Source: a virus. Taken from it: a stretch of 37,659 bases of DNA. The position numbers and the translations under genes are program-made. Of this stretch, positions 1 through 37,237 are shown in pieces. Position 1 is the first letter of the stretch. Each line of letters begins with the position of its first letter. The notes beneath the pieces are model-generated. The model was not told where the DNA came from. It saw only the letters and a list, made by a program, of their open reading frames with translations, and did no database searches. The stretch lies in IMG/VR virus record IMGVR_UViG_3300035661_000168, positions 1-37,659 of that record. One strand, 5' to 3'.

Positions 1-127
1 CGATTCTTCAGGCCTTTGGTAAATTATCAAACAAAGGAAACAGCTCAGTGTTTCCAACTGCCACAGACGGTACCGTTACGATCGCGGCCGATACGCCATT
101 ATCAAGAGACATGTACTATGACGTACT
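1..127. repeat. Terminal direct repeat: bases 1-127 are identical to 37533-37659 (circular-assembly overlap or terminal redundancy)
   Basis: Read directly. Both copies run cgattcttcaggcctttggtaaattatc...agacatgtactatgacgtact without mismatch, so the unique genome length is 37532 bp. Confidence 0.97.
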
Positions 128-833
128 AACTATCAACTCGGGCGCGACACTTTTCCCGAACGGATTCAGAGTCTTTGCTGCGACCTCGATTGTTAACAAC
201 GGATCAATTGATCGATCTGGAAACAACGCGTCAGGAACCGCCGCAACTCCTGCTTTAGCTGTTGGAACTTTGGCGGCCGGTACTGTGGGCGGAGCTGGCG
301 GAACGGCTGCTGGATCTGCCGGTGGAGCAGCGTCTCCAACCCTTGGCGGAGCTGGAGGAGCGGGTGGACTTGGATCAGGTGGTGCCGGTGGTGCCGCGGG
401 TGCTCAGACCGTAAACTCAGCTATCTTAGGCGGAGTCGAGATCCTTCAGGGTTATTCATACGCAAAAGAAACTAAGAACATTGCAGGTACGAGCATCGTT
501 GGTGGCACCGGAGCGGGTGGCGGCGGTGGAGACGGTGTCGCTGGCGGAGCGGGTGGCGGTGGCGGCGGAGCACTTGTCGTAGTGACTAGAAGCTTAACCG
601 GAACCGGAAGCATTAAAGCTATGGGCGGTAACGGCTTCACCCCAGTCACTGGCGGTAACAAGGGTGGCGGTGGCGGTGGCGGCGGCGGAATTATCTGTAT
701 CGCATCTGAAAACGATATTCTCGCAACATCCCTCACGCTATCTGTTTCCGGTGGCTCTGGAGCATCTGGAACTGGAACGGGAGTAAGCGGCGTTAACGGA
801 TCAGCTGGCCGCATCTACTTAGTACGGGTTTAA
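1..833 (+). CDS. Tail fibre protein, 3' part with glycine-rich tip. It continues the ORF that starts at 37253. The first full codon in the window starts at base 3. The ORF-track start at 48 (GTG) is an artefact of linearisation.
   Basis: Frame 3 is open from base 3 (ILQAFGKLSNKGNSSVFPTATDG...). It matches the in-frame end of the 37253 ORF through the 127-bp repeat. The product is Gly-rich (GGAGGTAAGSAGG, GGGGGDGVAGGAGGGGGG, GGGGGGGGG) and ends RIYLVRV*. Confidence 0.85.
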   Translation, partial: ILQAFGKLSNKGNSSVFPTATDGTVTIAADTPLSRDMYYDVLTINSGATLFPNGFRVFAATSIVNNGSIDRSGNNASGTAATPALAVGTLAAGTVGGAGGTAAGSAGGAASPTLGGAGGAGGLGSGGAGGAAGAQTVNSAILGGVEILQGYSYAKETKNIAGTSIVGGTGAGGGGGDGVAGGAGGGGGGALVVVTRSLTGTGSIKAMGGNGFTPVTGGNKGGGGGGGGGIICIASENDILATSLTLSVSGGSGASGTGTGVSGVNGSAGRIYLVRV

Positions 834-1701: not shown

Positions 1702-2070
1702 ATGCCATTGACTGCCCCTGAGAAGCCTATCAATAAAGAGACGTTCGAAGCCCTCATGTGCTTCCCGTTTGTCACGCTTGAAGGGATAGCCGACTTCTTT
1801 AAATGTAATAAGCAAACCATACAGCGGTGGGTCAAGCGCCAATATAATTGCACTTTTGATACTTTAAAGGCCAAAAAATGGGAAGGCATGAAGACCAAGC
1901 TTTTAGGTAAGCAGCTCGACATGGCGCTTAAGGGTAACATCCAAATGCTTGTACATCTTGGTAAGAACTATTTAGATCAAACCGAGAAGATAGAGCAAAA
2001 AATAGATGTTAAGGTGACTGAGTTCAAAATAGGTTGGGCAGATGAGACTGATACTCCCAAGAAGAACTGA
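1702..2070 (+). CDS. terS: Terminase small subunit (HTH type)
   Basis: GAGGA Shine-Dalgarno upstream of the ATG. The 122-aa product has an HTH-like segment LEGIADFFKCNKQTIQRWVKR. It lies immediately upstream of the large terminase and overlaps it. Confidence 0.65.
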   Translation: MPLTAPEKPINKETFEALMCFPFVTLEGIADFFKCNKQTIQRWVKRQYNCTFDTLKAKKWEGMKTKLLGKQLDMALKGNIQMLVHLGKNYLDQTEKIEQKIDVKVTEFKIGWADETDTPKKN

Positions 2071-3358
2071 GCCTCAAAAAAGAATCCAAAACTCTACAGC
2101 TCGGTTTAAGATTGCCAATTTCGGACGGCAGTCTGGGAAGACGACTAATGGAACATGGACGATGTTTAAAAAGCCCCTCGAAGGTGAGCCCAATAGAGTT
2201 TACTGGCACATCCTACAAACCCACTCGGTCGCGGAGATCGCGTTTAATAGATATGTACAACTCTTCCCTCGAGAGTCATGGACCCATCTATTTGCCAAGC
2301 GGCCAAATGAATCAGAGCGCACAGTCTGGCTCTCGGGTCATAGGCAAGTAAGCTTTAAGTCCGGCGAGAACTTTGAGGATCTAAGGGCTGAGACTTTATC
2401 AGGACTTATCATAGATGAGTGCCGGCAGCAGGATCCGAAGCTCTGGACCATGGTGACTCGACCGATGCTTGCAAAATATAAAGGCTGGGCTGATTTCTAT
2501 TCAACTCCTAATGGCTATGATTGGTTCTATGACTTATACCAATCGGCAAAAACTAATCCAGAAGAATGGGAATGTTTTACCTCGCCATCGACTGAAGCTT
2601 GGTGGTGGACGCCAGAAGAGATCGAGTCTGCAAGAAGATCAATGTCTGAGGCCCAGTTCGCGCAAGAGATCATGGCCGAGTTCAGGGATCTTGCTCAAGG
2701 CAAGGCTTACATAAACTTCGGTGATCACAACAAGCGCATAGGCTCTCCACTTGCTCAAGCCGGATCAGAGCTCAATAGATATCTACCAATTCACGTGGGC
2801 CTTGATTTCAACTTAACCCCGATGGCCTGGACCCTAAGTCAGAAGCGCGGCAACCATATGCATTTTCATGACGAGATATTCCTCGAGGGATCTCACACGC
2901 CAGAGGCCGCGGAAGTCTTAGCTCAAAAAGTAAAGGGCCACGCCATGGGCGTTGTTCTTTGTGGTGATGCTACTTCGAAGGCCGGACAAAGAGCCGCAGC
3001 AGGCGCGAGTGACTATGACATCCTGTGCAGCGTGTTAGATGGTCATGGTATCAAGTGGACTAACCTTACGCCGGCTTCAAACCCTATGGTCAAAGATAGA
3101 GTCAACACCGTGAACGCGAGATTAAAGTCTGCGAGTGGCGAAGCCTTTGTAACGATAGATCCAGTTACTTGCCCGCGGCTTGTAAGGGATTTCGAGCGTG
3201 TGGTTTGGAAGCAAGGCGCATCGTCTTTGATCTTAGATCAAAAGACCGACCCCTTACTCACGCATGCCTCTGATGGAGCTGGATACTTGATCTGTCAGAC
3301 ATTGCCGATTGATTCTACAAGTCAACCCGTTGGCGGTTTGTCAGTTATCTTGCGTTGA
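2042..3358 (+). CDS. terL: Terminase large subunit
   Basis: Walker A-like FGRQSGKTT and Walker B LIIDEC. RNaseH-like nuclease acidic motifs HVGLDFN and THASDGAGYLI near the C-terminus. 438 aa. Confidence 0.9.
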   Translation: MRLILPRRTEPQKRIQNSTARFKIANFGRQSGKTTNGTWTMFKKPLEGEPNRVYWHILQTHSVAEIAFNRYVQLFPRESWTHLFAKRPNESERTVWLSGHRQVSFKSGENFEDLRAETLSGLIIDECRQQDPKLWTMVTRPMLAKYKGWADFYSTPNGYDWFYDLYQSAKTNPEEWECFTSPSTEAWWWTPEEIESARRSMSEAQFAQEIMAEFRDLAQGKAYINFGDHNKRIGSPLAQAGSELNRYLPIHVGLDFNLTPMAWTLSQKRGNHMHFHDEIFLEGSHTPEAAEVLAQKVKGHAMGVVLCGDATSKAGQRAAAGASDYDILCSVLDGHGIKWTNLTPASNPMVKDRVNTVNARLKSASGEAFVTIDPVTCPRLVRDFERVVWKQGASSLILDQKTDPLLTHASDGAGYLICQTLPIDSTSQPVGGLSVILR

Positions 3359-4488
3359 CTCAAGGTCTAGAGCCCTTACAATTAAACCCAATGCCGGGGC
3401 TCAACCAGTCAAGTGTATATAGAAGTTTTGTCAAAGATCGAGATGCGGCTCTCGAAAAGGTCCTGCATAACAGCATGATCAAGATAGACAATGTTTTAAG
3501 GCGCTTATTCCAGGACTGGTTGAGTATCTGCATGCACTCACGCCGTCAGTGTAAGCCCAACACCAACAACGCATACTTTGACTTAGTAGTATTAAAGCAG
3601 GCCGAGAATAGAATGGACTCATTCATTCACGCAGCCCAAATCCAGATACATGAGATCATCAAAGACCTAAGGGTAAAGTCCTACGTGCTAGCGCTTACGA
3701 GTGAGGCTGAGGCTATAGGTAAGGCTTTAGGTAGACCCACGAAGTATAATCACTTGACGGCCGATGGCTTAAAAAGAGTTGAGAACATGCCTGCCCCAAA
3801 AGGTGGCAGCTTCGAGCGAGAGATCTTACATAACCTGTTCAAGATCAGAGACAAGCTTAAGTCTCAACTTCACTGGCTTATCATGAATCCCGATGTGACT
3901 GATCACGAGGGCTTGCAATACTTCTTAAAGAAGCTTCCTAGAACAAAACCTATGGGTTCTATGAAGAAGTCCTTAAAGCCTATCAAGAAGTTCGCTGAGG
4001 CCGACGAGCCTAAGAAGCGCTTCGATGATTTCTCTAGCGGATACATCGACGACGCTACTTGGGATGAGATCCTAGATGACTACCACAACGAGATGATCCA
4101 CGTGGACAGAAGTCCAGGGGCAATCGCTGCCGGTGCTGCCGAAGGCGATCCTTATTATGCATGGGAATTGGAGAGAGATGTCGTTAACGATTTCGTACAA
4201 CAGGTCAGATCTGGACAAGTGGATGCGGCTAATATTAATGGCATCACTGACTTTGTCGTTATTAGTGTGATCGACGATAAGACTTGTGAAGGATGTTGCG
4301 ACGATTATGGTTGCGTTGACTTCGACGGTCTCTTAACATCTGAAGTAGAAAAGATGACTAAAGGTAAGTACTCAGCACCACCCTACCATTTTAATTGTAG
4401 GTGTGCTTTAGCGCCTGCCACTGACGACATCCCGGACAAACCGGAAAGCAATGAAAAGGATTTCAACGCTTGGCTGAATACTCCATAA
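3355..4488 (+). CDS. Head morphogenesis protein, SPP1 gp7 / Mu F-like C-terminal domain
   Basis: C-terminal hallmark SAPPYHFNCRCALAP (the PP.H.NCRC motif of the MuF/gp7 family). TTG start in a TTGA overlap with the terL stop. Confidence 0.7.
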   Translation: MTQGLEPLQLNPMPGLNQSSVYRSFVKDRDAALEKVLHNSMIKIDNVLRRLFQDWLSICMHSRRQCKPNTNNAYFDLVVLKQAENRMDSFIHAAQIQIHEIIKDLRVKSYVLALTSEAEAIGKALGRPTKYNHLTADGLKRVENMPAPKGGSFEREILHNLFKIRDKLKSQLHWLIMNPDVTDHEGLQYFLKKLPRTKPMGSMKKSLKPIKKFAEADEPKKRFDDFSSGYIDDATWDEILDDYHNEMIHVDRSPGAIAAGAAEGDPYYAWELERDVVNDFVQQVRSGQVDAANINGITDFVVISVIDDKTCEGCCDDYGCVDFDGLLTSEVEKMTKGKYSAPPYHFNCRCALAPATDDIPDKPESNEKDFNAWLNTP

Positions 4489-6209
4489 AAGGTCCTGACG
4501 CCTTTCATATAGATGACGGTAATCCACACGCTAAAGTAGAGCGTAGTTACGTCCTTCAAAAACAAATCGTAGACATCGAAAAGAACTATCAGGTCGATGA
4601 CCAATTCAGAGAAGCTCAGTCCGTAGATGAAGTTCACACGATCGCTGAGCTCATCAAGTATGCCGAAGAAGGCAAGATCGAGATCGATGCAAGAGTCATT
4701 GGTCTAGATAAAGACGGCAACGCAGGCGTTGCGCACCTAGACACTAAAGAGTTTGTAGAAGCTCACCGAAATCCAAAAGCAGGCACATTAAAACTACGCG
4801 AGTCAGTCGACACGTTTAATTCTGATGGGCCCTATGCAAACCTAGGGAAGGTCGGCAATGACTTCACTCCTCTTTTGGGCGGCCCTTTTTATAAGCAACT
4901 TTATTATTATGATTACATGCGTATGCATAGTGCTGCATTTTATGCATATAATCATGATCCCTTGGCCAGGGCTATTGTATCTATTACTCGCGACTTTACT
5001 CTGGGTCGCGGTTGGCGTGCTGATAGTTCAAACAAAGCTGCACTAGCTTTATGGGAAGCCTTCGCTGACGCGAATGATCTCTATAATAAAGTAGATCATA
5101 TAGCCGTTGAGCTAGCCGTTTATGGCGAGACCATGATTTGGTGGCTGCCGGATAACGAAACTAAGATCACTTATAATCTAGGTAAGGGACAAACTGTGCC
5201 TAGAGGTTTGATCCCACGCATACGACTTATAGATCCATCATGCATTTGGGACATAATCACCTATCCAGAAGATATTACCAGAGTGCTTGCCTACCAATGG
5301 GTAGCTCCGACTCAGTACCAGATCTATACTAAAGACAACAAGACCGGCACAAGCGTGCCTTCTTCTAAGTTTATCTATCAGCAGATTCCTTCAGATCAAG
5401 TCATGCACTTTAAAGTGAACTCTGTTTCAAATGAGAAGCGCGGACGATCTGATTTGTTTCCGATCTTAGGATACTTAAAGCGCTTAAGAGATTCTGTTAA
5501 CTACGGGATCATTGCCCTACAAAAGAACATGGCCTGGTCAATAGACACGACCGTTGAAGGATCTCAATCTGATTTGAATGCATACGTTATGTCGCAGCAG
5601 GAGATTGGAACTATTCCGCCAGCTGGTTCAGAGTTTGTGCATTCTAAAAAAGTAGAGCGAAAGTATTTAAGCAACGAGGGTGGTCGTGGACAAGGTGTAC
5701 AAATTTTTGAGTGGTGTATGTCCTGCATTGCTGCGGGTAGCGGCATTCCTGTTAACTACTTTGGCTCTCACCTTGGCGGTGGTGGTACTCGAGCAAGCGC
5801 TCTTGTGGCTACAGAGCCGGTAACGAAGAAGTTTGAAAAGCGGCAGCTCGTGTATCAACAGATGCTCGATAAGATGGCTAAGCGATTATTTAAAATGTAC
5901 GGCATCGAAGCTGACATTGAATTTACTTTCCCAGAATTAGTGTCTCAAGACAGATCAGCAAAGCTTAAGGACATGGCTTTGGCAGAACTCCAAGGATGGA
6001 TCTCACGTGAGAAGCTGGCACCGATTGCGGCTAAAGAACTTGGGATTGATGACTATGATCCCGATGTAGACATGGGCATATCAGAGCAAGCTCCACTCGG
6101 TGGTGCAAGTCCACTATCAACTCCGCCAGCATTAGACGCCGGCGACAACCCTAAGCCGTCCGCGGTAACAGGCGAAGAGAGAGCTGCGATTGCAAAACAA
6201 GAATCTTGA
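4470..6209 (+). CDS. Portal protein
   Basis: 579-aa ORF in the packaging/head module. The only start candidate after the upstream in-frame stop is TTG 4470, with AAGGA 9 nt upstream. Size and position are typical of portals. No diagnostic motif read by eye. Confidence 0.7.
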   Translation: MAEYSIKGPDAFHIDDGNPHAKVERSYVLQKQIVDIEKNYQVDDQFREAQSVDEVHTIAELIKYAEEGKIEIDARVIGLDKDGNAGVAHLDTKEFVEAHRNPKAGTLKLRESVDTFNSDGPYANLGKVGNDFTPLLGGPFYKQLYYYDYMRMHSAAFYAYNHDPLARAIVSITRDFTLGRGWRADSSNKAALALWEAFADANDLYNKVDHIAVELAVYGETMIWWLPDNETKITYNLGKGQTVPRGLIPRIRLIDPSCIWDIITYPEDITRVLAYQWVAPTQYQIYTKDNKTGTSVPSSKFIYQQIPSDQVMHFKVNSVSNEKRGRSDLFPILGYLKRLRDSVNYGIIALQKNMAWSIDTTVEGSQSDLNAYVMSQQEIGTIPPAGSEFVHSKKVERKYLSNEGGRGQGVQIFEWCMSCIAAGSGIPVNYFGSHLGGGGTRASALVATEPVTKKFEKRQLVYQQMLDKMAKRLFKMYGIEADIEFTFPELVSQDRSAKLKDMALAELQGWISREKLAPIAAKELGIDDYDPDVDMGISEQAPLGGASPLSTPPALDAGDNPKPSAVTGEERAAIAKQES

Positions 6210-8937: not shown

Positions 8938-10143
8938 ATGAGTGAAAATAAAAAAAGTCTTCCTTGGGCGTTGAACCTTAAGGAACACAACACGAAAGTG
9001 TTTAAAAAAGTGTTGCTTGAGTCTGAAGAGATCAAGCGCGATCGTAGAAGCTATACTAAGTTAATGGGTTTTGATCCGTTGACTACTGAAGGACAAGCTA
9101 AGTTTCCAGTAATGGAATCTGGTTTTTCTTGGGGCAAAGTACAGAACAAATTGCAAGAGGCAGATTCTGCATCTAGCTTTACACAGTTCTTACGCGCCGG
9201 TATCCAGAGCATTACTAATGCTATGTACGAAGCAGTTGATGTTGCTTACGAAGATTTCGTAACTGTAGTTCAGTCTGATAAAGACACAGAGCTTTATGCT
9301 CCGAACCATGGTGTAGCGTTTCCTCGTCAAGTAGCTGAGCAACAAAAGTATCCTGAAGTTGGCGCTGCCGCTTTAGATATCAAGTTGCGCAACTACAAGT
9401 ACGGTTCTATCTACGCAGTAACTAAAGAGTTACTCGATGATGACCAAACTGGTTCATTCCAGCGTCAAGCTGCGATGATGGGCGAGTACATGAAGCTTCT
9501 TACTGAAGTTTTAGTATTCGGTAAACTGTCAGGCGTTCAATCTCAATACTTGGACTATATTGTTCCAACTTCTGAGACTAAGCCTGCCTCTGAAGCTAAC
9601 TACCCATGGACTAGCTCTGCTGCTCCTATGGTTGGCGGTGGCTATAATAAGCCAGTAGCTTACGGTGCTTTAACTCAAGGTAACGTTCAAAACGGTATCA
9701 TTGGTTTAATGCAACAGAAGAACCTTCAAGGTATCAAAATGCAAGTTAAGCCTAATCGCTTGTTGATTGGCCCAACACTTTCATTTGATAGCTCTGTTCT
9801 TATGAACTCTGCTTACTATCCATCAGGAGCTGCTGCTGCAGGTGCCGTGGGTGGCGCATTCGCAATCAATCCGATCAAGGGTCTCTTGGACGTAACAGTG
9901 TCACGCTTCATGGCTGACAACTTGGGTAAGTTCAATGGCGATTCTAAAGCTTGGTACTTGGTTGACGGATCTAAGCCTTGGTTCGTACTTCAGCTTCGTG
10001 AGGCTGTTACCGTGGAGCAAGAAAATCCTGCTTCAGGTGAGTCTTTTGAAATGGACGTTTACCGCTTCAAAACTCGCGGTCGTATGAATGCAGATTTCAT
10101 CGACCCACGTTTTGCATGGCAAGGTAACGACGGATCAGTCTAG
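8938..10143 (+). CDS. Major capsid protein
   Basis: AAGGAG Shine-Dalgarno. 401 aa, follows the scaffold and decoration-like genes, and is followed by the strongest terminator in the window. Confidence 0.75.
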   Translation: MSENKKSLPWALNLKEHNTKVFKKVLLESEEIKRDRRSYTKLMGFDPLTTEGQAKFPVMESGFSWGKVQNKLQEADSASSFTQFLRAGIQSITNAMYEAVDVAYEDFVTVVQSDKDTELYAPNHGVAFPRQVAEQQKYPEVGAAALDIKLRNYKYGSIYAVTKELLDDDQTGSFQRQAAMMGEYMKLLTEVLVFGKLSGVQSQYLDYIVPTSETKPASEANYPWTSSAAPMVGGGYNKPVAYGALTQGNVQNGIIGLMQQKNLQGIKMQVKPNRLLIGPTLSFDSSVLMNSAYYPSGAAAAGAVGGAFAINPIKGLLDVTVSRFMADNLGKFNGDSKAWYLVDGSKPWFVLQLREAVTVEQENPASGESFEMDVYRFKTRGRMNADFIDPRFAWQGNDGSV

Positions 10144-26506: not shown

Positions 26507-27001
26507 ATGGAAGCTGAAGTTAATATACATTGTAAATTTGATGAGCTTAAGAACCCGGTTGATTTAAAAGATCATCCATTTAATAGAAATAAACACGGCG
26601 ATGATCAAATCGAGCGGCTGGCTAAACTGTATACTTACCACGGCGTAAGACACCCGATTATTATCAGTAAAACTACTGGGTACATTGTGGCCGGTCACTG
26701 TCGTAAACTTGCCGCAATACGCGCAGGCATTGATGAAATGCCGGTTGTGTATCAAGAATTTAAAGACCGCGATCAAGAATATGCTTTTATACAAAGTGAC
26801 AATGCTGTAGCAACATGGGCTGAACTAGATTTATCCGGAATCAATGCAGACATGGGTACATTTGATCCTAATTTTGACATTGATATGCTTGGTATTAAAA
26901 ACTTTGTACTTGATCTATCGGAAAAAGAATTTGACCCATCTGACTCAACAGAAAGCGATAAGCCACATAAGTTATGTCCTCATTGTGGAGAAGCTCTGTG
27001 A
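26507..27001 (+). CDS. ParB-like nuclease (ParB N-terminal) domain protein
   Basis: HPFNRNKHGDDQIERLAKLYTYHGVRHPIIISKTTGYIVAGHCRKLAAIRAGIDEMPVV is the ParB/Srx fold signature. C-terminal CPHCG half zinc ribbon. GGGAGA Shine-Dalgarno. Confidence 0.75.
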   Translation: MEAEVNIHCKFDELKNPVDLKDHPFNRNKHGDDQIERLAKLYTYHGVRHPIIISKTTGYIVAGHCRKLAAIRAGIDEMPVVYQEFKDRDQEYAFIQSDNAVATWAELDLSGINADMGTFDPNFDIDMLGIKNFVLDLSEKEFDPSDSTESDKPHKLCPHCGEAL

Positions 27002-27978
27002 AGCTTAAGGCTGGTAGCGTTAAGAGATATGGAATTCCCTATCAAGGCTCCAAGACTAAGATCATAGATCAGATAGCTAGATATTTTCCCAATGCAGATC
27101 ACTTCTACGATCTCTTTGGCGGTGGATTCTCGGTCACTCATTACATGCTCGAGAATAGAAGAAAGTCTTTTAATAACTTTCACTTTAATGAAATACGTCC
27201 TGGCATTTGTGAATTAGTTAAAGACTCAATCTATGGTAAATACAATTATGATATATTTAAGCCAGAGTGGATTTCAAGAGATAGATTCATGGCCGAAAAA
27301 GAATCAAGCGCTTATATAAAAATCATATGGTCTTTTGGTAATAATGGAGAGGGTTACATCTTCGGAAAAGACAGGGAATCAAACGTAAGAAGCATGCACA
27401 TGGCCGTTGTGTTTGATGAGTTTGATGAGTGGTTTAAAGATACATTTAAAATAGATCGGTGGCCAAATTCTCTTGATATAACTGGCAAAAGATTGTATTT
27501 AAAAATGATCTTAAGAAAATTAAAACGAGTTGATCTCCAGCAACTCGAGCGACTCGAGCGACTCCAGCAACTCGAGCGACTCCAGCAACTCCAGCAACTC
27601 GAGCGACTCGAGCAACTCCAGCAACTCGAGCAACTCGAGCGACTCCAGCGACTCCATTTAACAAGTTTAGATTATCGACAAGTAAAGATAGAGACAAACT
27701 CCGTTATCTATTGTGACATTCCTTATTATGGAACAGCGGGGTATGGAGATGTGTTTAGTCATAAAGATTTCTTTGATTGGGCCTCTTCGCAAAACAATCC
27801 AGTGTTTGTATCTGAATACGAAGTCAAGGATGACAGATTTTATCTCTTAAAAGAATTCACACACAGATCTACATTCTCCTCAGGCGGAGATAAGAATATC
27901 CCAGTGACAGAGCGCCTGTACGGAAATAAGACGGCCTATGAAATAATTCAAAAGGCCATAGCGTCTCGTATCAAATAG
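26974..27978 (+). CDS. DNA N6-adenine methyltransferase, Dam/D12-class-like, with an internal 9-bp tandem-repeat insertion
   Basis: N-terminal PYQGSKTKI, AdoMet motif I DLFGGGFSV (FxGxG), catalytic motif IV CDIPYYG (a DPPY variant). Start is either ATG 26974 or GTG 26998 (GTGA overlap with the ParB-like stop). Confidence 0.75.
   Translation: MSSLWRSSVKLKAGSVKRYGIPYQGSKTKIIDQIARYFPNADHFYDLFGGGFSVTHYMLENRRKSFNNFHFNEIRPGICELVKDSIYGKYNYDIFKPEWISRDRFMAEKESSAYIKIIWSFGNNGEGYIFGKDRESNVRSMHMAVVFDEFDEWFKDTFKIDRWPNSLDITGKRLYLKMILRKLKRVDLQQLERLERLQQLERLQQLQQLERLEQLQQLEQLERLQRLHLTSLDYRQVKIETNSVIYCDIPYYGTAGYGDVFSHKDFFDWASSQNNPVFVSEYEVKDDRFYLLKEFTHRSTFSSGGDKNIPVTERLYGNKTAYEIIQKAIASRIK
27535..27654 (+). repeat. 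Perfect in-frame 9-bp tandem array, CTC-[C/G]AG-C[A/G]A x13 (plus a terminal CTC), encoding L-[Q/E]-[Q/R] repeats
   Basis: Read codon by codon: LQQ LER LER LQQ LER LQQ LQQ LER LEQ LQQ LEQ LER LQR L. Only unit positions 4 and 8 vary. Confidence 0.95.
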
Positions 27979-28050: not shown

Positions 28051-28614
28051 TTAAAGCAGCTTAATTGTGGTCTGGCGCGGCCTAAAGGCTTGAACAACCC
28101 CGTCGTCGCCAGCCGCCTCTATATGTCTCTGAACGGTATCGTAGATCTGTAGCGTGTCTTCAAATGCAATATTAAAAGTGTCTGCGATCTCTGTTAGGTG
28201 CTGAATTTTTTTGGGCGGTAAAATTTGAATCTTTTCTGGACCACTTGGTTTTTGAATAGAGGAAAGCGCATCCAATTCTTTATTGCCGTCTGTTTCAAGC
28301 AAAAACGCGCTGCTCGTTTGTGAAAACAGGCGATCCCTACCATCGGCATGGGTTAACCTAACTTTCAATCCTACGCGGTCAAAATGCACAATCGTTTCGA
28401 CGCCCCATTCCACTTTTGCTTGATGTGTTATGATGGGCTCAAGTTTTTCGTTGGCGTCAGAATTTTGCCAGGCTTCGATGAGAATTTTTGTTAGGTCCAG
28501 GTTCATGTCAGATCGTTTAGACTTAAGATCCGACTTCTCGAGTTCGGCTTTAATTTCATTAATAAAAGTGGCTTCTGATTTCTGGCTTCGGTTTTGGAAG
28601 AATCTGGTCAACAA
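28051..28614 (-). CDS. Hypothetical protein (start uncertain; alternative Met 36 codons downstream)
   Basis: 187-aa ORF downstream of the helicase on the minus strand. The annotated start overlaps the helicase end by 56 nt. Confidence 0.55.
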   Translation of the reverse strand: MLTRFFQNRSQKSEATFINEIKAELEKSDLKSKRSDMNLDLTKILIEAWQNSDANEKLEPIITHQAKVEWGVETIVHFDRVGLKVRLTHADGRDRLFSQTSSAFLLETDGNKELDALSSIQKPSGPEKIQILPPKKIQHLTEIADTFNIAFEDTLQIYDTVQRHIEAAGDDGVVQAFRPRQTTIKLL

Positions 28615-29788
28615 GTTCGCCCTCGCTTAGTGAGCTTTTTTCAGGCTCGTAATTAATTTTTAACTCAAAGCCGTGTCTTCCGTGACGGTTCTTTAGGGCT
28701 TTGAGAATAAATCCATTCTCTTCAGTTTGGTGGAAAAATAAAACCGTAGATGCCGCCTGCATCATTCGCTTACTCGCTTTTGGTTTTCCGCTCTCCTCAT
28801 CGGCTTGCGATAAGATTACAACGTGCAGCTGTAAACGCTTAGCAAGCTCCTCAAGGGCTTCGCAAGCTTTTTGAATAAATTTCCACTCATCATCTCGAGA
28901 CTCATGAATAATTTTTTGATCGTAGTCGACAAATAAAAATTCAATCTTGCTTTTGTCTTTGCATTCGTTAGCAAGTATTTCTATGCGAGACAAGTCAAGT
29001 GATTTTCCAGAAGTGAAATGTAGGTTTCCAGAGAGGCGCATAACGTCTCTGACAGTTGTCTCGATCTTCTGAACGTAGTTTTGATTTCCAAGCTCGTACC
29101 TCTGAACCCCAGCTTCTGCCATTATGAATCTTGCAGTGAGGTCGTATTGGTCCATTTCCATGTTGATATACAAACTCGGGCGCTCACTTCGCCACAAGCC
29201 TCTTGCAAGAGCCATTGCGAGATTTGTTTTCCCAACCCCGGTGCCGGCAGTAAGAATTGTAACTCGACCAGGATTAAACCCGCCGATGAGCGATGAGAGA
29301 ACTTCCCACTTTGGAATTTTTACTTCGAACGTGTTTTCAGCAATGCGCCTTTCGGTCTCAAGAATAAAATCACTTGTCATGGCTTCGATTGATTTTACCT
29401 CAGCGAAGTCGGAGGCGGCGGCGAGCGCAACATACTCTTTCAGCAGATGGTGAAATTGTGTTGGATCAGCTTTAATTCTAAGACCCATTTCTCTAGCGAA
29501 AAGGACAGTTGACGAAGAATCAAAAATCGACGTGAGTCCAGCTGAGTCTTTCGGGAGTCCTGATGCCCCATCAACGTAATCAATACTCTCTGCAAAAGCG
29601 TACCTTGCAGCTACTACAGTTTTTTCTTTTACGAGAGATAAAAACTCATCGTACTTTACTTTCGCAGAACACTCAGGCCAACGCATTCCAACTATCCCAA
29701 GTTTTTTACAAAGCTCAAAGTATCCGTCTACGAAAACGCAGTTGAAAAGAATGGCGCTTAAGTTTTCATCAGCAAGCTTTGGACTCAC
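28559..29788 (-). CDS. dnaB: Replicative DNA helicase, DnaB-like
   Basis: Walker A GRVTILTAGTGVGKTNLAMALA, YINMEM, Walker B-like FLFVDYDQ, HVVILSQ, KNRHG. GTG start in a GTGA overlap with the upstream gene. Confidence 0.8.
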   Translation of the reverse strand: MSPKLADENLSAILFNCVFVDGYFELCKKLGIVGMRWPECSAKVKYDEFLSLVKEKTVVAARYAFAESIDYVDGASGLPKDSAGLTSIFDSSSTVLFAREMGLRIKADPTQFHHLLKEYVALAAASDFAEVKSIEAMTSDFILETERRIAENTFEVKIPKWEVLSSLIGGFNPGRVTILTAGTGVGKTNLAMALARGLWRSERPSLYINMEMDQYDLTARFIMAEAGVQRYELGNQNYVQKIETTVRDVMRLSGNLHFTSGKSLDLSRIEILANECKDKSKIEFLFVDYDQKIIHESRDDEWKFIQKACEALEELAKRLQLHVVILSQADEESGKPKASKRMMQAASTVLFFHQTEENGFILKALKNRHGRHGFELKINYEPEKSSLSEGELVDQILPKPKPEIRSHFY

Positions 29789-30489
29789 TTTGCAACCCCG
29801 ATTTCACTCAAGAGCGCTTTGCGAAAGTATCTTCGCTTACCGGAAAGAGTTGACGAAATGTTTGAGGCCGCTTCGGAGAGTTCTTGCATAACTAAATTAA
29901 ATTCCCTTTCATCTCGAAATCTTGCGAGTAGCGCATCCTTGTGCCTTAAAATTCCTGTATCGCCAAGTGTTTCATAAACCCTGGTTTCAATTATTTTCAA
30001 TAAGCCTGAATTTTCAGCAGCTGCTGCTTTTGTGGGCAGTGGATCAAATGCTGTGCTTTGCGTTTTTGTTACTTCTACATCTACATCTAATTCTAATTCT
30101 TTATCTAATTCTATATCTAGGCGCGGGTTTTGCGCGTGTTGACCGCGGGTTGACCGCGCTTTTTTCATGTCTCTATCCAATAAATTCAATAAGATAGGCA
30201 TGTCGATTTCAATAAATTCCTCAGAAATTTTGAAAAAAAGTAAAGAATATTCTTGGGAAAACCTTAGAAATTCCTGAAGTTTTGCTGAGGATATGTGTAG
30301 GTTTCTCCGAACTAATTGTTCATGAAACCTAAACTTTTGTTGAACATTTGGCTCAATATTTTCCAACTTTTCGGCGCACATTTCCATCAAAGTATAGTAA
30401 CAAGAGGGCCCCATATGGCCCATTTTGCCAAAGAGCAACTGAATGGACTGACCCCGATGGTTGTCCGTAAAATGCTTAAACCAACGCAT
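29785..30489 (-). CDS. Replication initiation / replisome organiser protein (DUF4373, Lin1244-like N-terminal domain)
   Basis: N-terminus MRWFKHFTDNHRGQSIQLLFGKMGHMGPSCYYTLMEMCAE matches the M.WFkH....d.ki..L....G..G.g.Y..l.E pattern. AAGGAG lies 7 nt upstream. It sits directly upstream of the helicase. Confidence 0.6.
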   Translation of the reverse strand: MRWFKHFTDNHRGQSIQLLFGKMGHMGPSCYYTLMEMCAEKLENIEPNVQQKFRFHEQLVRRNLHISSAKLQEFLRFSQEYSLLFFKISEEFIEIDMPILLNLLDRDMKKARSTRGQHAQNPRLDIELDKELELDVDVEVTKTQSTAFDPLPTKAAAAENSGLLKIIETRVYETLGDTGILRHKDALLARFRDEREFNLVMQELSEAASNISSTLSGKRRYFRKALLSEIGVAK

Positions 30490-30816
30490 TGTAAATTCTC
30501 CTTTATATATATAGACGCAATAAATAAACCATTGATCTTTTGAATGTTTTGCTAGATTCTGCAGATCAATTGGTTTATCGCAACTCCAATTCTTAGCCCT
30601 TCACTTTAAAAAGTCGAGGGCTTTGTCTTTTTAAGACACGCGTCGAAATTATTTTCTCGACACTATTTAAATCTTGTTGTTTAAGAATTCTCGTACCGGC
30701 GACCAGAATAATAAAAATTTAATATTAGGCCTCACTCTGACTCTCTGTTCCCTTCTACTTTCGCCGGTAGTCAACACGGGATAGGAGTGAGGTTTGATTC
30801 TTAATAGGAGTTGAGA
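30490..30816. promoter_or_regulatory. Divergent intergenic control region (candidate early promoters, operators or origin)
   Basis: 327 bp between divergently oriented replication and recombination operons. AT-rich tracts (tatatatata; aataataaaaatttaatatta). Inverted repeats: AACCATTGATCT/AGATCAATTGGTT (about 30529-30578), GTCGAG/CTCGAC, and TACCGGCGA (30694-30702)/TCGCCGGTA (30761-30769). Confidence 0.4.
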
Positions 30817-31521
30817 ATGGAATTAGCCACAACAGCAGAGTCATCGTCATATGAGAGAACGATAAACAAAGTCTCCGCCGCCTTCGTTGCCGCTCAAGCT
30901 AGTTTCCCAGAGATACCAAAAGATAAGCTTGTAGACGTTGGACAATACTCTTACAGCTATGCCGAGCTTGGAACGATCATATCTATGATAAAACCAGCGC
31001 TGAAAGAACATGGGCTTGCAATCATTCAATCCATCGAACAAGCCGATGCAAACACTTGCGTGCTGTTAACCTCGATAGTCCACACCTCTGGTCAAAAGCT
31101 AACCTCAGGCCTACCGTTTCAATTTAAGCCAGGGCTTCCACCACAGCAGCAGGGTGGGCTGATCACCTACATGAAGCGATATGGTCTATGCTTAGCCATA
31201 GGCATATCTCCAGAGGATGATCTAGATGCGCGAGATACAGCTGATGAGAAGCTAAAGTCTAAATCAAAACAAGCCCCAGTAAATCATGCGCCTGGCCAGG
31301 CTGGAACTATATCAGAAGCTCAAGGTAAACTTTTATGGGTTAACTTACAAAAGGCCGGCTGGTCAGAAGAACAGGCTAAGAACTTCATAGGGATTAGATA
31401 TAAAAAGTCATCAAGTAAGGATCTTCGAACTAAACACTTAAATGATTTCTTAGATATTTTAAAATCTGGAACATCATATGATAAAGCGCAGCAGCTGCCG
31501 AGGCCAGAGGGTTTGGCTTGA
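30817..31521 (+). CDS. erf: ERF-family single-strand annealing recombinase
   Basis: QYSYSYAELGTIISMIKPALKEHGLAIIQS is the ERF core (Y.YA.L..v....p.L...Gl...Q). AGGAG lies 7 nt upstream of ATG 30817 (the ORF track used TTG 30811). Confidence 0.75.
   Translation: MELATTAESSSYERTINKVSAAFVAAQASFPEIPKDKLVDVGQYSYSYAELGTIISMIKPALKEHGLAIIQSIEQADANTCVLLTSIVHTSGQKLTSGLPFQFKPGLPPQQQGGLITYMKRYGLCLAIGISPEDDLDARDTADEKLKSKSKQAPVNHAPGQAGTISEAQGKLLWVNLQKAGWSEEQAKNFIGIRYKKSSSKDLRTKHLNDFLDILKSGTSYDKAQQLPRPEGLA

Positions 31522-32576: not shown

Positions 32577-32595
<19 letters not shown>
32263..32595 (+). CDS. Hypothetical protein (conserved-looking; function unknown)
   Basis: AAGGAG lies 6 nt upstream of ATG 32263 (the ORF track used an upstream start at 32230). 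Globular-looking sequence IIVLQRGWVLVGKL...VIRNWGTTKGLGELAEKGP. Confidence 0.65.
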
Positions 32596-32882
<287 letters not shown>

Positions 32883-35640: not shown

Positions 35641-35981
35641 GTATTAAGTTTAATCCCTTCACGGGGAACTTTGACTTTGTCGGTGGATCGTCCACCACTG
35701 CTATAGATAATTTCAGCTACGAAACAATACCAGACGGCATAACCGTTACGATCCCAGATGGCCAGCAGATGCTCCTGAAAGGAAACCTAAACATCTTAGG
35801 CGACCTTATTATACAGGGGACGCTGCAGTTCATAACCGATACACAGAATCAGTTTCCATTTTATTCAAAAATACTTTCTAATGAGGTGGTCGTAGTACCA
35901 CCGGATAGGCTCTTGCTTTATAAGGACTTCCTTATAATCGAGGGGCACTTAAGAAACCAAGGAAGGGTCGAAACCGTATGA
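35637..35981 (+). CDS. Small fibre-associated protein
   Basis: TTG start in a TTGA overlap. The N-terminus MSIKFNPFTGNFDFVGG resembles N-termini I recall from phage fibre or collar proteins. ATGA overlap with the fibre gene. Confidence 0.5.
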   Translation: MSIKFNPFTGNFDFVGGSSTTAIDNFSYETIPDGITVTIPDGQQMLLKGNLNILGDLIIQGTLQFITDTQNQFPFYSKILSNEVVVVPPDRLLLYKDFLIIEGHLRNQGRVETV

Positions 35982-37237
35982 GTTCATTTGGATTAGTTAA
36001 AGTTACCCCCGCAAGCGTTCCAACACCACCGGTAGGACAAGAGAATTACTTCACAGACATCACGGACGATAAGTTTAAAAAGAAACTAGACGATGGATCA
36101 ATCGTTGTGGTCGAGTCCGGCGTTTCTTCCGTCTCTAGTGTGTTTGGAAGAATCGGCGCAGTCGTAGCCGTAAGCGGTGACTACATCGCGGCTCAAGTAA
36201 CGAACACCCCGGCCGGAAACATTATCGCTACAAATGTTCAAAACGCTATCAATGAGCTGGACACAGAGAAGCTCACCGTAGCCCATCAAGGTGCCGGCGG
36301 TCCAGGTGAGCACCCACTCGTGACCGGGGCCGTAGCTGGCTTTATGTCGCCTAGCGACAAGACTAAGATCGACACCGTTCAAACCGGAGCAACTGCGAAT
36401 CAAACAGATTCCTACCTTCTAGATAGAACTAACCATACATCGACACAATTAGCCTCAACGATTAGCAATTTTGATGCGCAGGCAGACTCAAGGATTACTT
36501 TACAAAAAGGTAATACGAACGGTCTTGCATCGCTAGATGGAACTGGAAAAGTTCCTCTAACGCAGCTTCCATCTAGTGTCGTAGGGGGCGTTACTTATAT
36601 TTCAGCTTGGAATGCTGCAATAAATTCTCCTCCTCTTGCGAGTGGAGTTGGAACAAAAGGATATTATTATGTTGTTAATGTTGCTGGATCAACAAGTCTC
36701 GACGGCATTTCTTCTTGGAATATTGGCGACTGGGTTATATTTGATGGAATCGTTTGGGAAAAAGTAGATAATACTGATTCCGTAAGCTCGGTAAACGGAC
36801 AAGTCGGAACGGTCGTGCTTACAAAGTCTGACATTGGCTTATCAAATGTCGATAACACATCTGACTTAAATAAACCGATCAGCACAGCAACTCAAACGGC
36901 CTTAAACTTAAAAGCCGATCTGACAAATGCAATCAATCAACTGACCGGTGAAGTAACGGCCGGGCCCGGTGGTGGATCTCAGGCCGCAACGGTTTCAAAT
37001 GCCGCGGTGATTGGAAAGCTGTTAACGGGATTGTCTGAACAGTATGGCGTAGTCGAAGCGACTGACACGATACTGCAAGCCATTTCGAAATTAGTTTACA
37101 CGCCAGGCATTCAAGCTAAAGATGTAAATGCAAGCATGACCATCCCGTCGGGCTATGTTTTAATTCGTGGAGAAACAAGACTTACTGGAACCAACACGAT
37201 TAAAATAAACTCAGGCGCAACTTTAAAAATTATTTAA
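35978..37237 (+). CDS. Tail fibre protein 1
   Basis: 419 aa. Fibre-type motifs SSVSSVFGRIGAVVAVSGDYIAAQV and SVNGQVGTVVLTKSDIGLSNVDNTSDLNKPISTATQTALNLK. Confidence 0.8.
   Translation: MSSFGLVKVTPASVPTPPVGQENYFTDITDDKFKKKLDDGSIVVVESGVSSVSSVFGRIGAVVAVSGDYIAAQVTNTPAGNIIATNVQNAINELDTEKLTVAHQGAGGPGEHPLVTGAVAGFMSPSDKTKIDTVQTGATANQTDSYLLDRTNHTSTQLASTISNFDAQADSRITLQKGNTNGLASLDGTGKVPLTQLPSSVVGGVTYISAWNAAINSPPLASGVGTKGYYYVVNVAGSTSLDGISSWNIGDWVIFDGIVWEKVDNTDSVSSVNGQVGTVVLTKSDIGLSNVDNTSDLNKPISTATQTALNLKADLTNAINQLTGEVTAGPGGGSQAATVSNAAVIGKLLTGLSEQYGVVEATDTILQAISKLVYTPGIQAKDVNASMTIPSGYVLIRGETRLTGTNTIKINSGATLKII

Follow-up and report, generated by a model that had tools for sequence, protein, structure and literature searches.

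A length-variable, in-frame tripeptide array ahead of the catalytic motif in a family of predicted phage D12-class DNA methyltransferases

The DNA examined here is the IMG/VR virus record IMGVR_UViG_3300035661_000168, positions 1 to 37,659 (the whole stretch of 37,659 nucleotides is called the window below), and our subject is an in-frame array of nine-base units inside one of its genes, which encodes a predicted D12-class N6-adenine DNA methyltransferase with alpha-type motif order (Table 1). Pfam PF02086 (D12 class) matches the 334-residue protein with an E-value of 5.9e-09 and 36.5 bits against a cutoff of 22, and the same annotation is precomputed for nearly all of its homologues, while phrog_56 (“DNA methyltransferase”) matches with an E-value of 9e-29. 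The AlphaFold2 (AF2) model, made with a 118-sequence alignment, has a Dam-like fold (predicted local distance difference test score, pLDDT, 78; predicted template modelling score, pTM, 0.78), and its best PDB matches in Foldseek are T4 Dam and E. coli Dam, with an E-value of 8e-07 and a probability of 1.0 at TM-scores of only 0.39–0.52. These matches agree with a preliminary description of this DNA, which had proposed a Dam-like enzyme of the D12/alpha type. The TIGR00571 model (“dam”) gives the protein 33.9 bits, under its cutoff of 114.85, suggesting the enzyme is not an orthodox GATC Dam.

The order of motifs along the protein follows that of the Dam enzymes. Motif I, which binds S-adenosylmethionine (AdoMet), lies near the N-terminus at residues 46–54, as had been described, and residues F44, D46, F48, G49, G50, G51 and F52 are invariant among 118 homologues. 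Next comes an inferred DNA-binding region, located between the motif I/II strands and the strand that follows the array, which contains a conserved WSFGNNG..Y.FG loop and the AF2 helices H135–147, H152–158 and H169–183, and which matches the domain boundaries of 57–144 given for Dam (PMC10073500). Past the array, AF2 strands E227–230 and E243–247 cover a segment that aligns with T4 Dam residues 147–188, DPPY included. The motif IV sequence CDIPYYG starts at residue 247, about 20 codons past the array as first stated; its CDIPY (residues 247–251) is replaced by DPPY in some family members, and Y246, C247, D248, P250 and Y251 are invariant in the same 118 homologues. The phage protein thus has the fold and motif order of T4 Dam and E. 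coli Dam (PDB 1Q0S, 1YFJ, 2ORE), sharing with them a Y-x-G-x-K N-terminus, an FxGxG motif I, a helical DNA-binding domain with a conserved loop and D-P/I-P-Y, although identity to these enzymes is only 13–16%.

The array consists of 13 nine-base units of the form CTC-SAG-CRA at window positions 27535–27651, followed by one more CTC at 27652–27654. A recount of the units reproduced the earlier observation that variation is limited to unit positions 4 and 8: C and G share position 4 (6 and 7 units), A and G share position 8 (7 and 6 units), and positions 1–3, 5–7 and 9 are the same in 13/13 units. The array had also been called perfect, which holds against this degenerate consensus and not otherwise, as Tandem Repeats Finder (TRF) reports 86% matches at period 9 (score 156, with a score of 205 at period 27). 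Outside the array the degenerate 9-mer occurs 4 times in the window, counting both strands, against a calculated expectation of about 1, and a run of 13 such units is far beyond chance. Within the methyltransferase open reading frame (ORF) the array codes in frame for residues 188–227, reading LQQ LER LER LQQ LER LQQ LQQ LER LEQ LQQ LEQ LER LQR L, and all six frames are open across it.

Every one of the 120 best database homologues (48–75% identity, all metagenomic, many on contigs of 35–42 kb) has L-[E/Q]-[Q/R] units at the same place, before L-T-N-L-D-Y...YCDIPY. By a strict count these homologues carry 3–21 units with a median of 8, each value from 3 to 12 being common, and IMG/VR loci extend the size of the array to 27 units. 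One of the patterns used to scan IMG/VR fell inside the repeat; the GTDB rescan was seeded outside the array with [HN]FYDLFGG and WSFGN[ND]GxxY. In this rescan about 40 of the 47 scorable relatives (31–69% identity) had the array, positioned 13–16 residues ahead of Y-x-D-x-P-Y. The GTDB relatives are metagenome-assembled genomes of many phyla, among them gut Treponema, Prevotella and Clostridia, and in the gut lineages L-[E/Q]-[S/R] takes the place of L-[E/Q]-[Q/R]. Other GTDB relatives have remnants of 4–6 units (e.g., LENLERLERL) or N-runs at the array spot. In three GTDB contigs (L095, L109 and L065) N-runs fall exactly where the array is expected, through either an assembly break or masking.

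The array position is also recognizable in cultured phages, where 7–14 degenerate [L/I]-x-x units are found in Lau218 (LNK IQQ LEH LTR LNK LKQ LDR IQH LGR LNS LKK LNG IQG), Cylindrospermopsis virus CrV-01T (LQH LER LER LEK LNH LEK LKH) and Lactobacillus phage Lc-Nu (LAN ILR LNR IEQ LQQ LQQ LNS). The clade to which these proteins belong comprises 3,837 members at E ≤ 1e-5 among 8,000 candidates examined; their sources are freshwater, marine, soil and gut viromes and prophage-like contigs belonging to many phyla. Across 743 kb of examined loci the arrays are confined to this methyltransferase family, with 84/89 lying upstream of DPPY and the remaining 5/89 being reverse-strand readings or contig ends. 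When a 54-residue repeat peptide was used as query against the protein database, nothing matched at E ≤ 0.001. Taken together, the array is a family-wide hallmark of a very large methyltransferase clade and not private to this phage. The preliminary description had called it inserted; the word is apt relative to T4 Dam and E. coli Dam and not relative to the enzyme's own family, where the array is universal. That description had also allowed that homologues might carry a non-repetitive segment of the same length here, and what they carry is repetitive and 3–27 units long.

Comparison with the Dam structures places the array more exactly. The family profile aligns the last ~3 units with T4 Dam residues 138–150, a helix directly ahead of the IIFSSL strand and DPPY. 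The DNA-binding domain of E. coli Dam spans residues 57–144 and its catalytic domain resumes at 145 (PMC10073500). Judged by these alignments, the array lies at the second of the enzyme's two inter-domain crossovers, where the chain leaves the DNA-binding domain for the catalytic one, at the C-terminal junction of the target-recognition domain. The original placement between the AdoMet motif and DPPY, in the target-recognition region, is therefore right as to position and can be narrowed to the C-terminal edge of the DNA-binding domain. In T4 Dam and E. coli Dam the corresponding stretch is a short helix, about a dozen residues long and free of repeats; in the phage family 3–27 tripeptide units replace and extend it. 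AF2 modelled the 13-unit array as a helix (residues 187–218) and the array of a 3-unit homologue (P0101) as coil, in both cases with pLDDT <50 there and a confident fold elsewhere. By calculation a straight alpha-helix of 13 units would be ~60 Å long, and each added unit would turn a rigid alpha-helix by 300 degrees; unit numbers among the homologues show no six-unit (18-residue) periodicity. Because both ends of the array are tied to one compact enzyme, with the preceding helix 169–183 fixed, long arrays would have to loop or fold back outward, be flexible, or hold the enzyme in an open or domain-swapped form.

Neither the window nor its array could be followed directly into other samples. 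A megablast search of window positions 1–25000 against GenBank phages and exact searches with the array flanks in IMG/VR and JGI metagenome contigs found no match, so sizing of the array rests on relatives of this phage, and these relatives show that array length turns over rapidly. Loci L013, L015 and L016, each from a different metagenome, carry 14, 16 and 18 units; L013 and L015, and likewise L015 and L016, have zero mismatches over ~6.7 kb, and L013 and L016 share 99.9% identity (two aligned blocks with 3 and 2 mismatches). The samples behind L013–L016 are IMG 3300046028, 3300046006, 3300044987 and 3300046001. Loci L035 and L036 (99.4% identity) have 9 and 11 units plus two differences in unit type, while L044 has 19 units and L051 has 27. 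Near-identical enzymes are off by 1–8 units. Protein pairs at least 95% identical differ by a mean of 3.3 units, equal to the difference between pairs at 60–70% identity, which suggests that array length is without phylogenetic signal. It had been proposed that gain or loss of units keeps the frame and changes length without switching the gene off. Both parts of this proposal are supported by the relatives, in which contigs with identical flanks differ in the array alone, unit number ranges from 3 to 27 with a 9-bp unit, and 120/120 homologues read through the array into DPPY. On/off phase variation was rejected for the same unit size, as 9 bp cannot shift the frame.

In the DNA, all units of a given array share one Leu codon (CTC in this phage), yet six Leu codons (CTC, TTG, CTT, CTG, CTA and TTA) are used across lineages. 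The codon at position 2 of the unit is SAG or SAA, and that at position 3 is CAR or CGR across the Q/R lineages. Arg in the Q/R arrays sampled is nearly always CGR, one transition from the Gln codons CAR, whereas the commonest Arg codon outside the arrays is AGA. One Leu codon within an array and six among lineages point to internal homogenization by concerted evolution, with nucleotides drifting between lineages while selection on the protein holds the peptide pattern. The Ser/Arg gut lineages reach the same neutral/basic dimorphism at position 3 through other one-base toggles (AGT/AGG, AGC/CGC and AGC/AGA), which we take as convergent evidence that selection favours a neutral/basic mix at position 3 and a neutral/acidic mix at position 2. 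LQQ, LER, LEQ and LQR make up ~93% of the ~960 units counted, and Lys, Asp, His and Pro variants are rare among them although one mutation away. E and R are each present in all arrays of at least 6 units, and neither proportion is over-dispersed among arrays (chi2/df 1.01 for E and 0.72 for R). E and R occur together within one unit more often than expected (249 observed vs. 185), which may reflect how units duplicate, and E(i)-R(i+4) pairs show no excess (164 vs. 160.5 expected).

Two familiar structural solutions were considered for such a peptide. A canonical heptad coiled coil was rejected, since Leu recurs at exactly 3.0 residues against the ~3.5 needed and forms no seam, and the E(i)-R(i+4) count just given lends no support to salt-bridge pairing. 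The array resembles the ER/K single alpha-helix in its large share of E, R and Q and its strong tendency to form helix, and in having Glu at position 2 and the Arg at position 3 of the next unit at i and i+4. It departs from that type in being one third Leu, in the lack of E(i)-R(i+4) enrichment and in the low AF2 confidence; ER/K-type spacers are typically without Leu.

We put at about an even chance the explanation that the array is a live in-frame minisatellite coding for a length-variable, probably alpha-helical connector from the DNA-binding domain to the second half of the catalytic domain. Units would be gained and lost through replication slippage or unequal recombination between near-identical 9-bp units, a process that would both homogenize each array and alter its length faster than the flanks gain substitutions, and because the frame is kept throughout, the enzyme would never be switched off. 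Selection on the protein retains Leu at every third residue, an acidic or amide residue at position 2 and an amide, Ser or basic residue at position 3, the outcome being a soluble, charge-balanced tract rich in helix-favouring residues. The units nearest the pre-DPPY strand may be the counterpart of the short helix at the domain crossover of T4 Dam and E. coli Dam, and further units may form a length-tolerant extension that projects or loops from the enzyme body, upheld by the self-perpetuating instability of a homogeneous repeat. We favour a structural need for the proximal units, which fits the minimum of ~3 units and the remnants seen in nearly all relatives. Any effect of length is most likely quantitative, acting on inter-domain tethering or flexibility or through a protruding arm, and a discrete change in the recognized sequence is less likely. 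The phage encodes an Erf-like single-strand annealing protein, which could add to the instability of this array and of a second coding array in the genome described below.

Several observations weigh against this explanation. Arrays of 126–243 bp are near or above read length, so some of the length differences beside identical flanks could be short-read assembly errors, a caveat that two GTDB contigs with N-runs at the array support. Assembly error does not explain the arrays of L035 and L036, at 81 and 99 bp, or a range of 3–27 units over thousands of independent assemblies. AF2 confidence in the array is too low to tell helix, hairpin or disorder apart, and E(i)-R(i+4) pairs, being at their expected number, do nothing to favour a single helix held by salt bridges. 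A further difficulty is Leu. It is kept at every third residue even in the degenerate “fossil” arrays, which is beyond what a passive tether needs, and at a period of 3.0 it makes no continuous hydrophobic seam on an alpha-helix, leaving the constraint without an explanation. Such strict conservation suggests some particular part in packing or binding, which the connector explanation leaves unnamed.

This gap concerning the contacts of the invariant Leu residues keeps alive an alternative that we consider possible though doubtful, namely an arm for oligomerization or partner docking, in which a protruding helix with Leu at every third residue would self-associate or bind, for example, the ParB_N-domain protein encoded upstream, its length being only loosely constrained. 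The Leu or Ile that survives at every third residue in the cultured phages suggests packing, a ParB_N gene directly precedes the methyltransferase gene in over 30 relatives, and within the 743 kb of loci examined the arrays are confined to one methyltransferase family. A period of 3.0, however, is neither heptad nor hendecad, and on geometric grounds the Leu residues spiral round the axis without a seam; the AF2 structure of the segment is not confident, and in the loci examined the ParB_N linkage holds in part of the family only. We find it unlikely that the array is instead a ruler for specificity or spacing, where a rigid helix would set the geometry between recognition and catalysis, possibly in a dimer or domain-swapped dimer, and gain or loss of units would retune the methylated sequence or the half-site spacing. 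The location exactly at the crossover from DNA-binding to catalytic domain would suit such a ruler, as would hypervariable copy number beside identical flanks and strong protein-level selection for helix-forming residues; a monomer probably could not close round a helix of ~60 Å, so that long arrays would need fold-back or domain swapping, and some phages hold 2–3 tandem paralogues with different arrays. The closest functional analogy, and a documented precedent, is the TAEL repeat of the type IC specificity subunit HsdS (EcoR124I/II and EcoDXXI), where in EcoR124 a change from 2 to 3 copies shifts the spacer from N6 to N7; the preliminary description had invoked this case, and the source confirms it (PMC3874165). 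Both repeats are short, in frame, Leu-containing and helical (12 bp against 9 bp), both lie in the part of a methylation system that links recognition modules, and both change naturally in copy number with the frame kept, natural in-frame variation in the phage family covering 3–27 units. The likeness ends there, as HsdS is a separate subunit whose two recognition domains are joined by an antiparallel coiled coil, whereas the phage enzyme is a single chain with one DNA-binding domain. A Pfam scan of the protein detected only the D12 domain and no HsdS match; TAEL has 2–3 copies and shares no sequence homology with the phage repeat, and the effect on specificity is known for EcoR124. Dam-type enzymes, as established for T4 Dam and E. 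coli Dam, work as monomers at short, uninterrupted sites, which also speaks against a ruler. A rigid helix turning by 300 degrees with each unit should favour certain lengths, but each number of units from 3 to 12 is common, without periodicity, and it is for this reason that we prefer a length-tolerant connector. Differences of 1–8 units between near-identical enzymes also count against a ruler, and the tandem paralogues differ in the FGN..Y.Y recognition loop as well, which alone could account for different specificities. Quite unlikely, in our judgement, is the related proposal that array length is a fast heritable setting of enzyme geometry, with long arrays giving open, dimeric or domain-swapped forms and gain or loss of units altering the methylated sequence, the half-site spacing or the choice between specific and relaxed methylation.

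Explanations that look to the nucleic acid fare worse. It is improbable that the array exists as a recombination joint, its homogeneous repeat giving homology for the swapping of N- and C-terminal methyltransferase halves between co-infecting phages. Homologues P0120 and P0014 share 92% identity over the N-terminal half and 51% over the C-terminal half, the change falling at the array, and the phage encodes an Erf-like annealing protein; P0120 is nevertheless the one clear chimera in 118 sequences, the identities of the two halves otherwise correlate (r = 0.63), lineage-specific codon sets limit homology across lineages, and the constraint on the amino acids would be left unexplained. The chimera indicates that an array can serve as a recombination junction, and recombination there is most plausibly a by-product and not the function. 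Hardly credible is a DNA- or RNA-level element (a protein-binding site, an RNA structure or an overlapping ORF) to which the methyltransferase frame would be incidental. Six open frames and the palindromic CTCGAG could be read that way, but the nucleotides differ by lineage (six Leu codons; SAG/SAA; CAR/CGR or AGY/AGR/CGC) while L-[E/Q]-[Q/R/S] is always kept in the methyltransferase frame, and the products of other frames and the palindromes vary by lineage. DNA or RNA function and the alternative-frame ORFs (e.g., the 83-aa and 45-aa minus-strand ORFs) were rejected, as the peptide is conserved and the nucleotides are not.

The surroundings of the methyltransferase gene are those of a phage. 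By its gene content the window is a tailed-phage genome or genome segment, with the principal features collected in Table 1. By tblastn, over 30 related loci have a ParB_N homologue that ends just ahead of the methyltransferase gene, and the two genes form a conserved two-gene module. Loci with this partner include L002–L005, L007, L012, L054, L058 and others. In Lau218 the gene upstream of the methyltransferase codes for a small zinc-ribbon protein (FmdB-like) in place of ParB_N. Two loci, L045 (332–2921) and L033 (1833–4071), hold 2–3 tandem paralogues of the array-bearing methyltransferase that are 84–88% identical. The main differences among them are the length and composition of the array and the FGN..Y.Y loop, and in L045 the third copy is truncated past DPPY.

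Table 1. Features of the window discussed in the text, with the evidence for each
Feature	Position	Strand	Evidence and remarks
D12-class (Dam-like, alpha-type order) N6-adenine DNA methyltransferase gene (predicted), 334 aa	26974..27978	+	Pfam, PHROG, Foldseek
Motif I, AdoMet-binding, DLFGGGFSV, residues 46-54	27109..27135	+	Sequence; aligns with T4 Dam residues 5-39
Inferred DNA-binding (target-recognition) region, residues ~73-186	27190..27531	+	AF2 secondary structure; boundaries inferred
Array, (L-[E/Q]-[Q/R])x13 plus L	27535..27654	+	Sequence, TRF, homologous arrays; AF2 helix 187-218, pLDDT <50
Post-array strand (HLTSLDY) and motif IV strand ending CDIPYYG (27712-27732)	27655..27732	+	Sequence, AF2, T4 Dam alignment
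ParB_N-domain gene, C-terminal CxxC	26507..27001	+	Pfam PF02195, E 2.3e-06; overlaps methyltransferase start by 28 nt
Large terminase	2042-3358		
Portal	4470-6209		
Major head protein	8938-10143		
Tail protein	35978-37237		
Erf-like annealing protein	30811-31521		phrog_2324, E 9e-31
DnaB-like helicase	28559-29788	minus	

Other repeats were seen in the window. A second in-frame array at 32621–32870 consists of ~42 units of the 6-bp sequence GGC-NAC in a 101-aa ORF (32577–32882), the product of which is MEKRTINFEDTKSSL followed by (G-[D/N/Y])n and LGY. Only unit position 4 varies in this array (G/A/T), which like the methyltransferase array combines a fixed codon scaffold with a single-base toggle. 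Two adjacent sets of direct repeats occur at 30070–30158, one of TCTACA/TCTAAT-type hexamers (~7 copies) and one of CGCGGGTTGAC (~3.4 copies), in or beside an ORF at 29785..30489 on the minus strand that adjoins the DnaB-like helicase gene; these repeats are iteron-like and may mark a replication origin. Lastly, the first ORF of the window (48..833, plus strand) contains Gly-rich coding repeats at 378–688, made of GGTGGC, GGTGGAGAC and GGTGGCGGCGGCGGAGAC units.

Full-text literature searches with repeat strings and keywords found no description of this repeat in D12 methyltransferases, an absence there that is not proof of novelty. A further known system is that of the phasevarions (type III mod, type I hsdM/hsdS), which likewise have slippage-prone repeats in a methyltransferase gene that generate rapid heritable variants (PMC7383803, PMC10073500). 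Their tracts have a unit that is not a multiple of three and act by on/off frameshifting, whereas the 9-bp unit of the phage array alters length and not expression. The sequence comparisons given here are robust evidence for the existence and position of the array, its conservation through the family, its concerted evolution, its fast change in length and the constraint on the protein, and its signs of concerted evolution and of convergent selection on the peptide are unusually clean; slippage, the helical state, a projecting geometry and any consequence for function are inferred. We regard the array as a case of repeat-mediated variation of a DNA methyltransferase. In practice the array is also a hazard that breaks or mis-sizes short-read assemblies.

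Orphan methyltransferases carried by phages are a major anti-restriction device, and the routes to fast variation covered in reviews are frameshifting repeats (type III mod, type I hsd), shuffling of hsdS and the TAEL repeat of type IC HsdS. If the array did act as a ruler, it would be a phage contingency locus against host restriction systems, and if its length were a heritable geometry setting, it would be an in-frame contingency locus with which a large phage clade re-tunes self-methylation against host restriction. Should length be neutral, the array would still be a striking coding minisatellite that perpetuates itself, and a marker by which phages could be typed to the strain. If length does affect function, the family would offer a natural linker-length series for engineering, and an effect on specificity, processivity or oligomeric state would make the array a new route to phage epigenetic and anti-restriction diversification.

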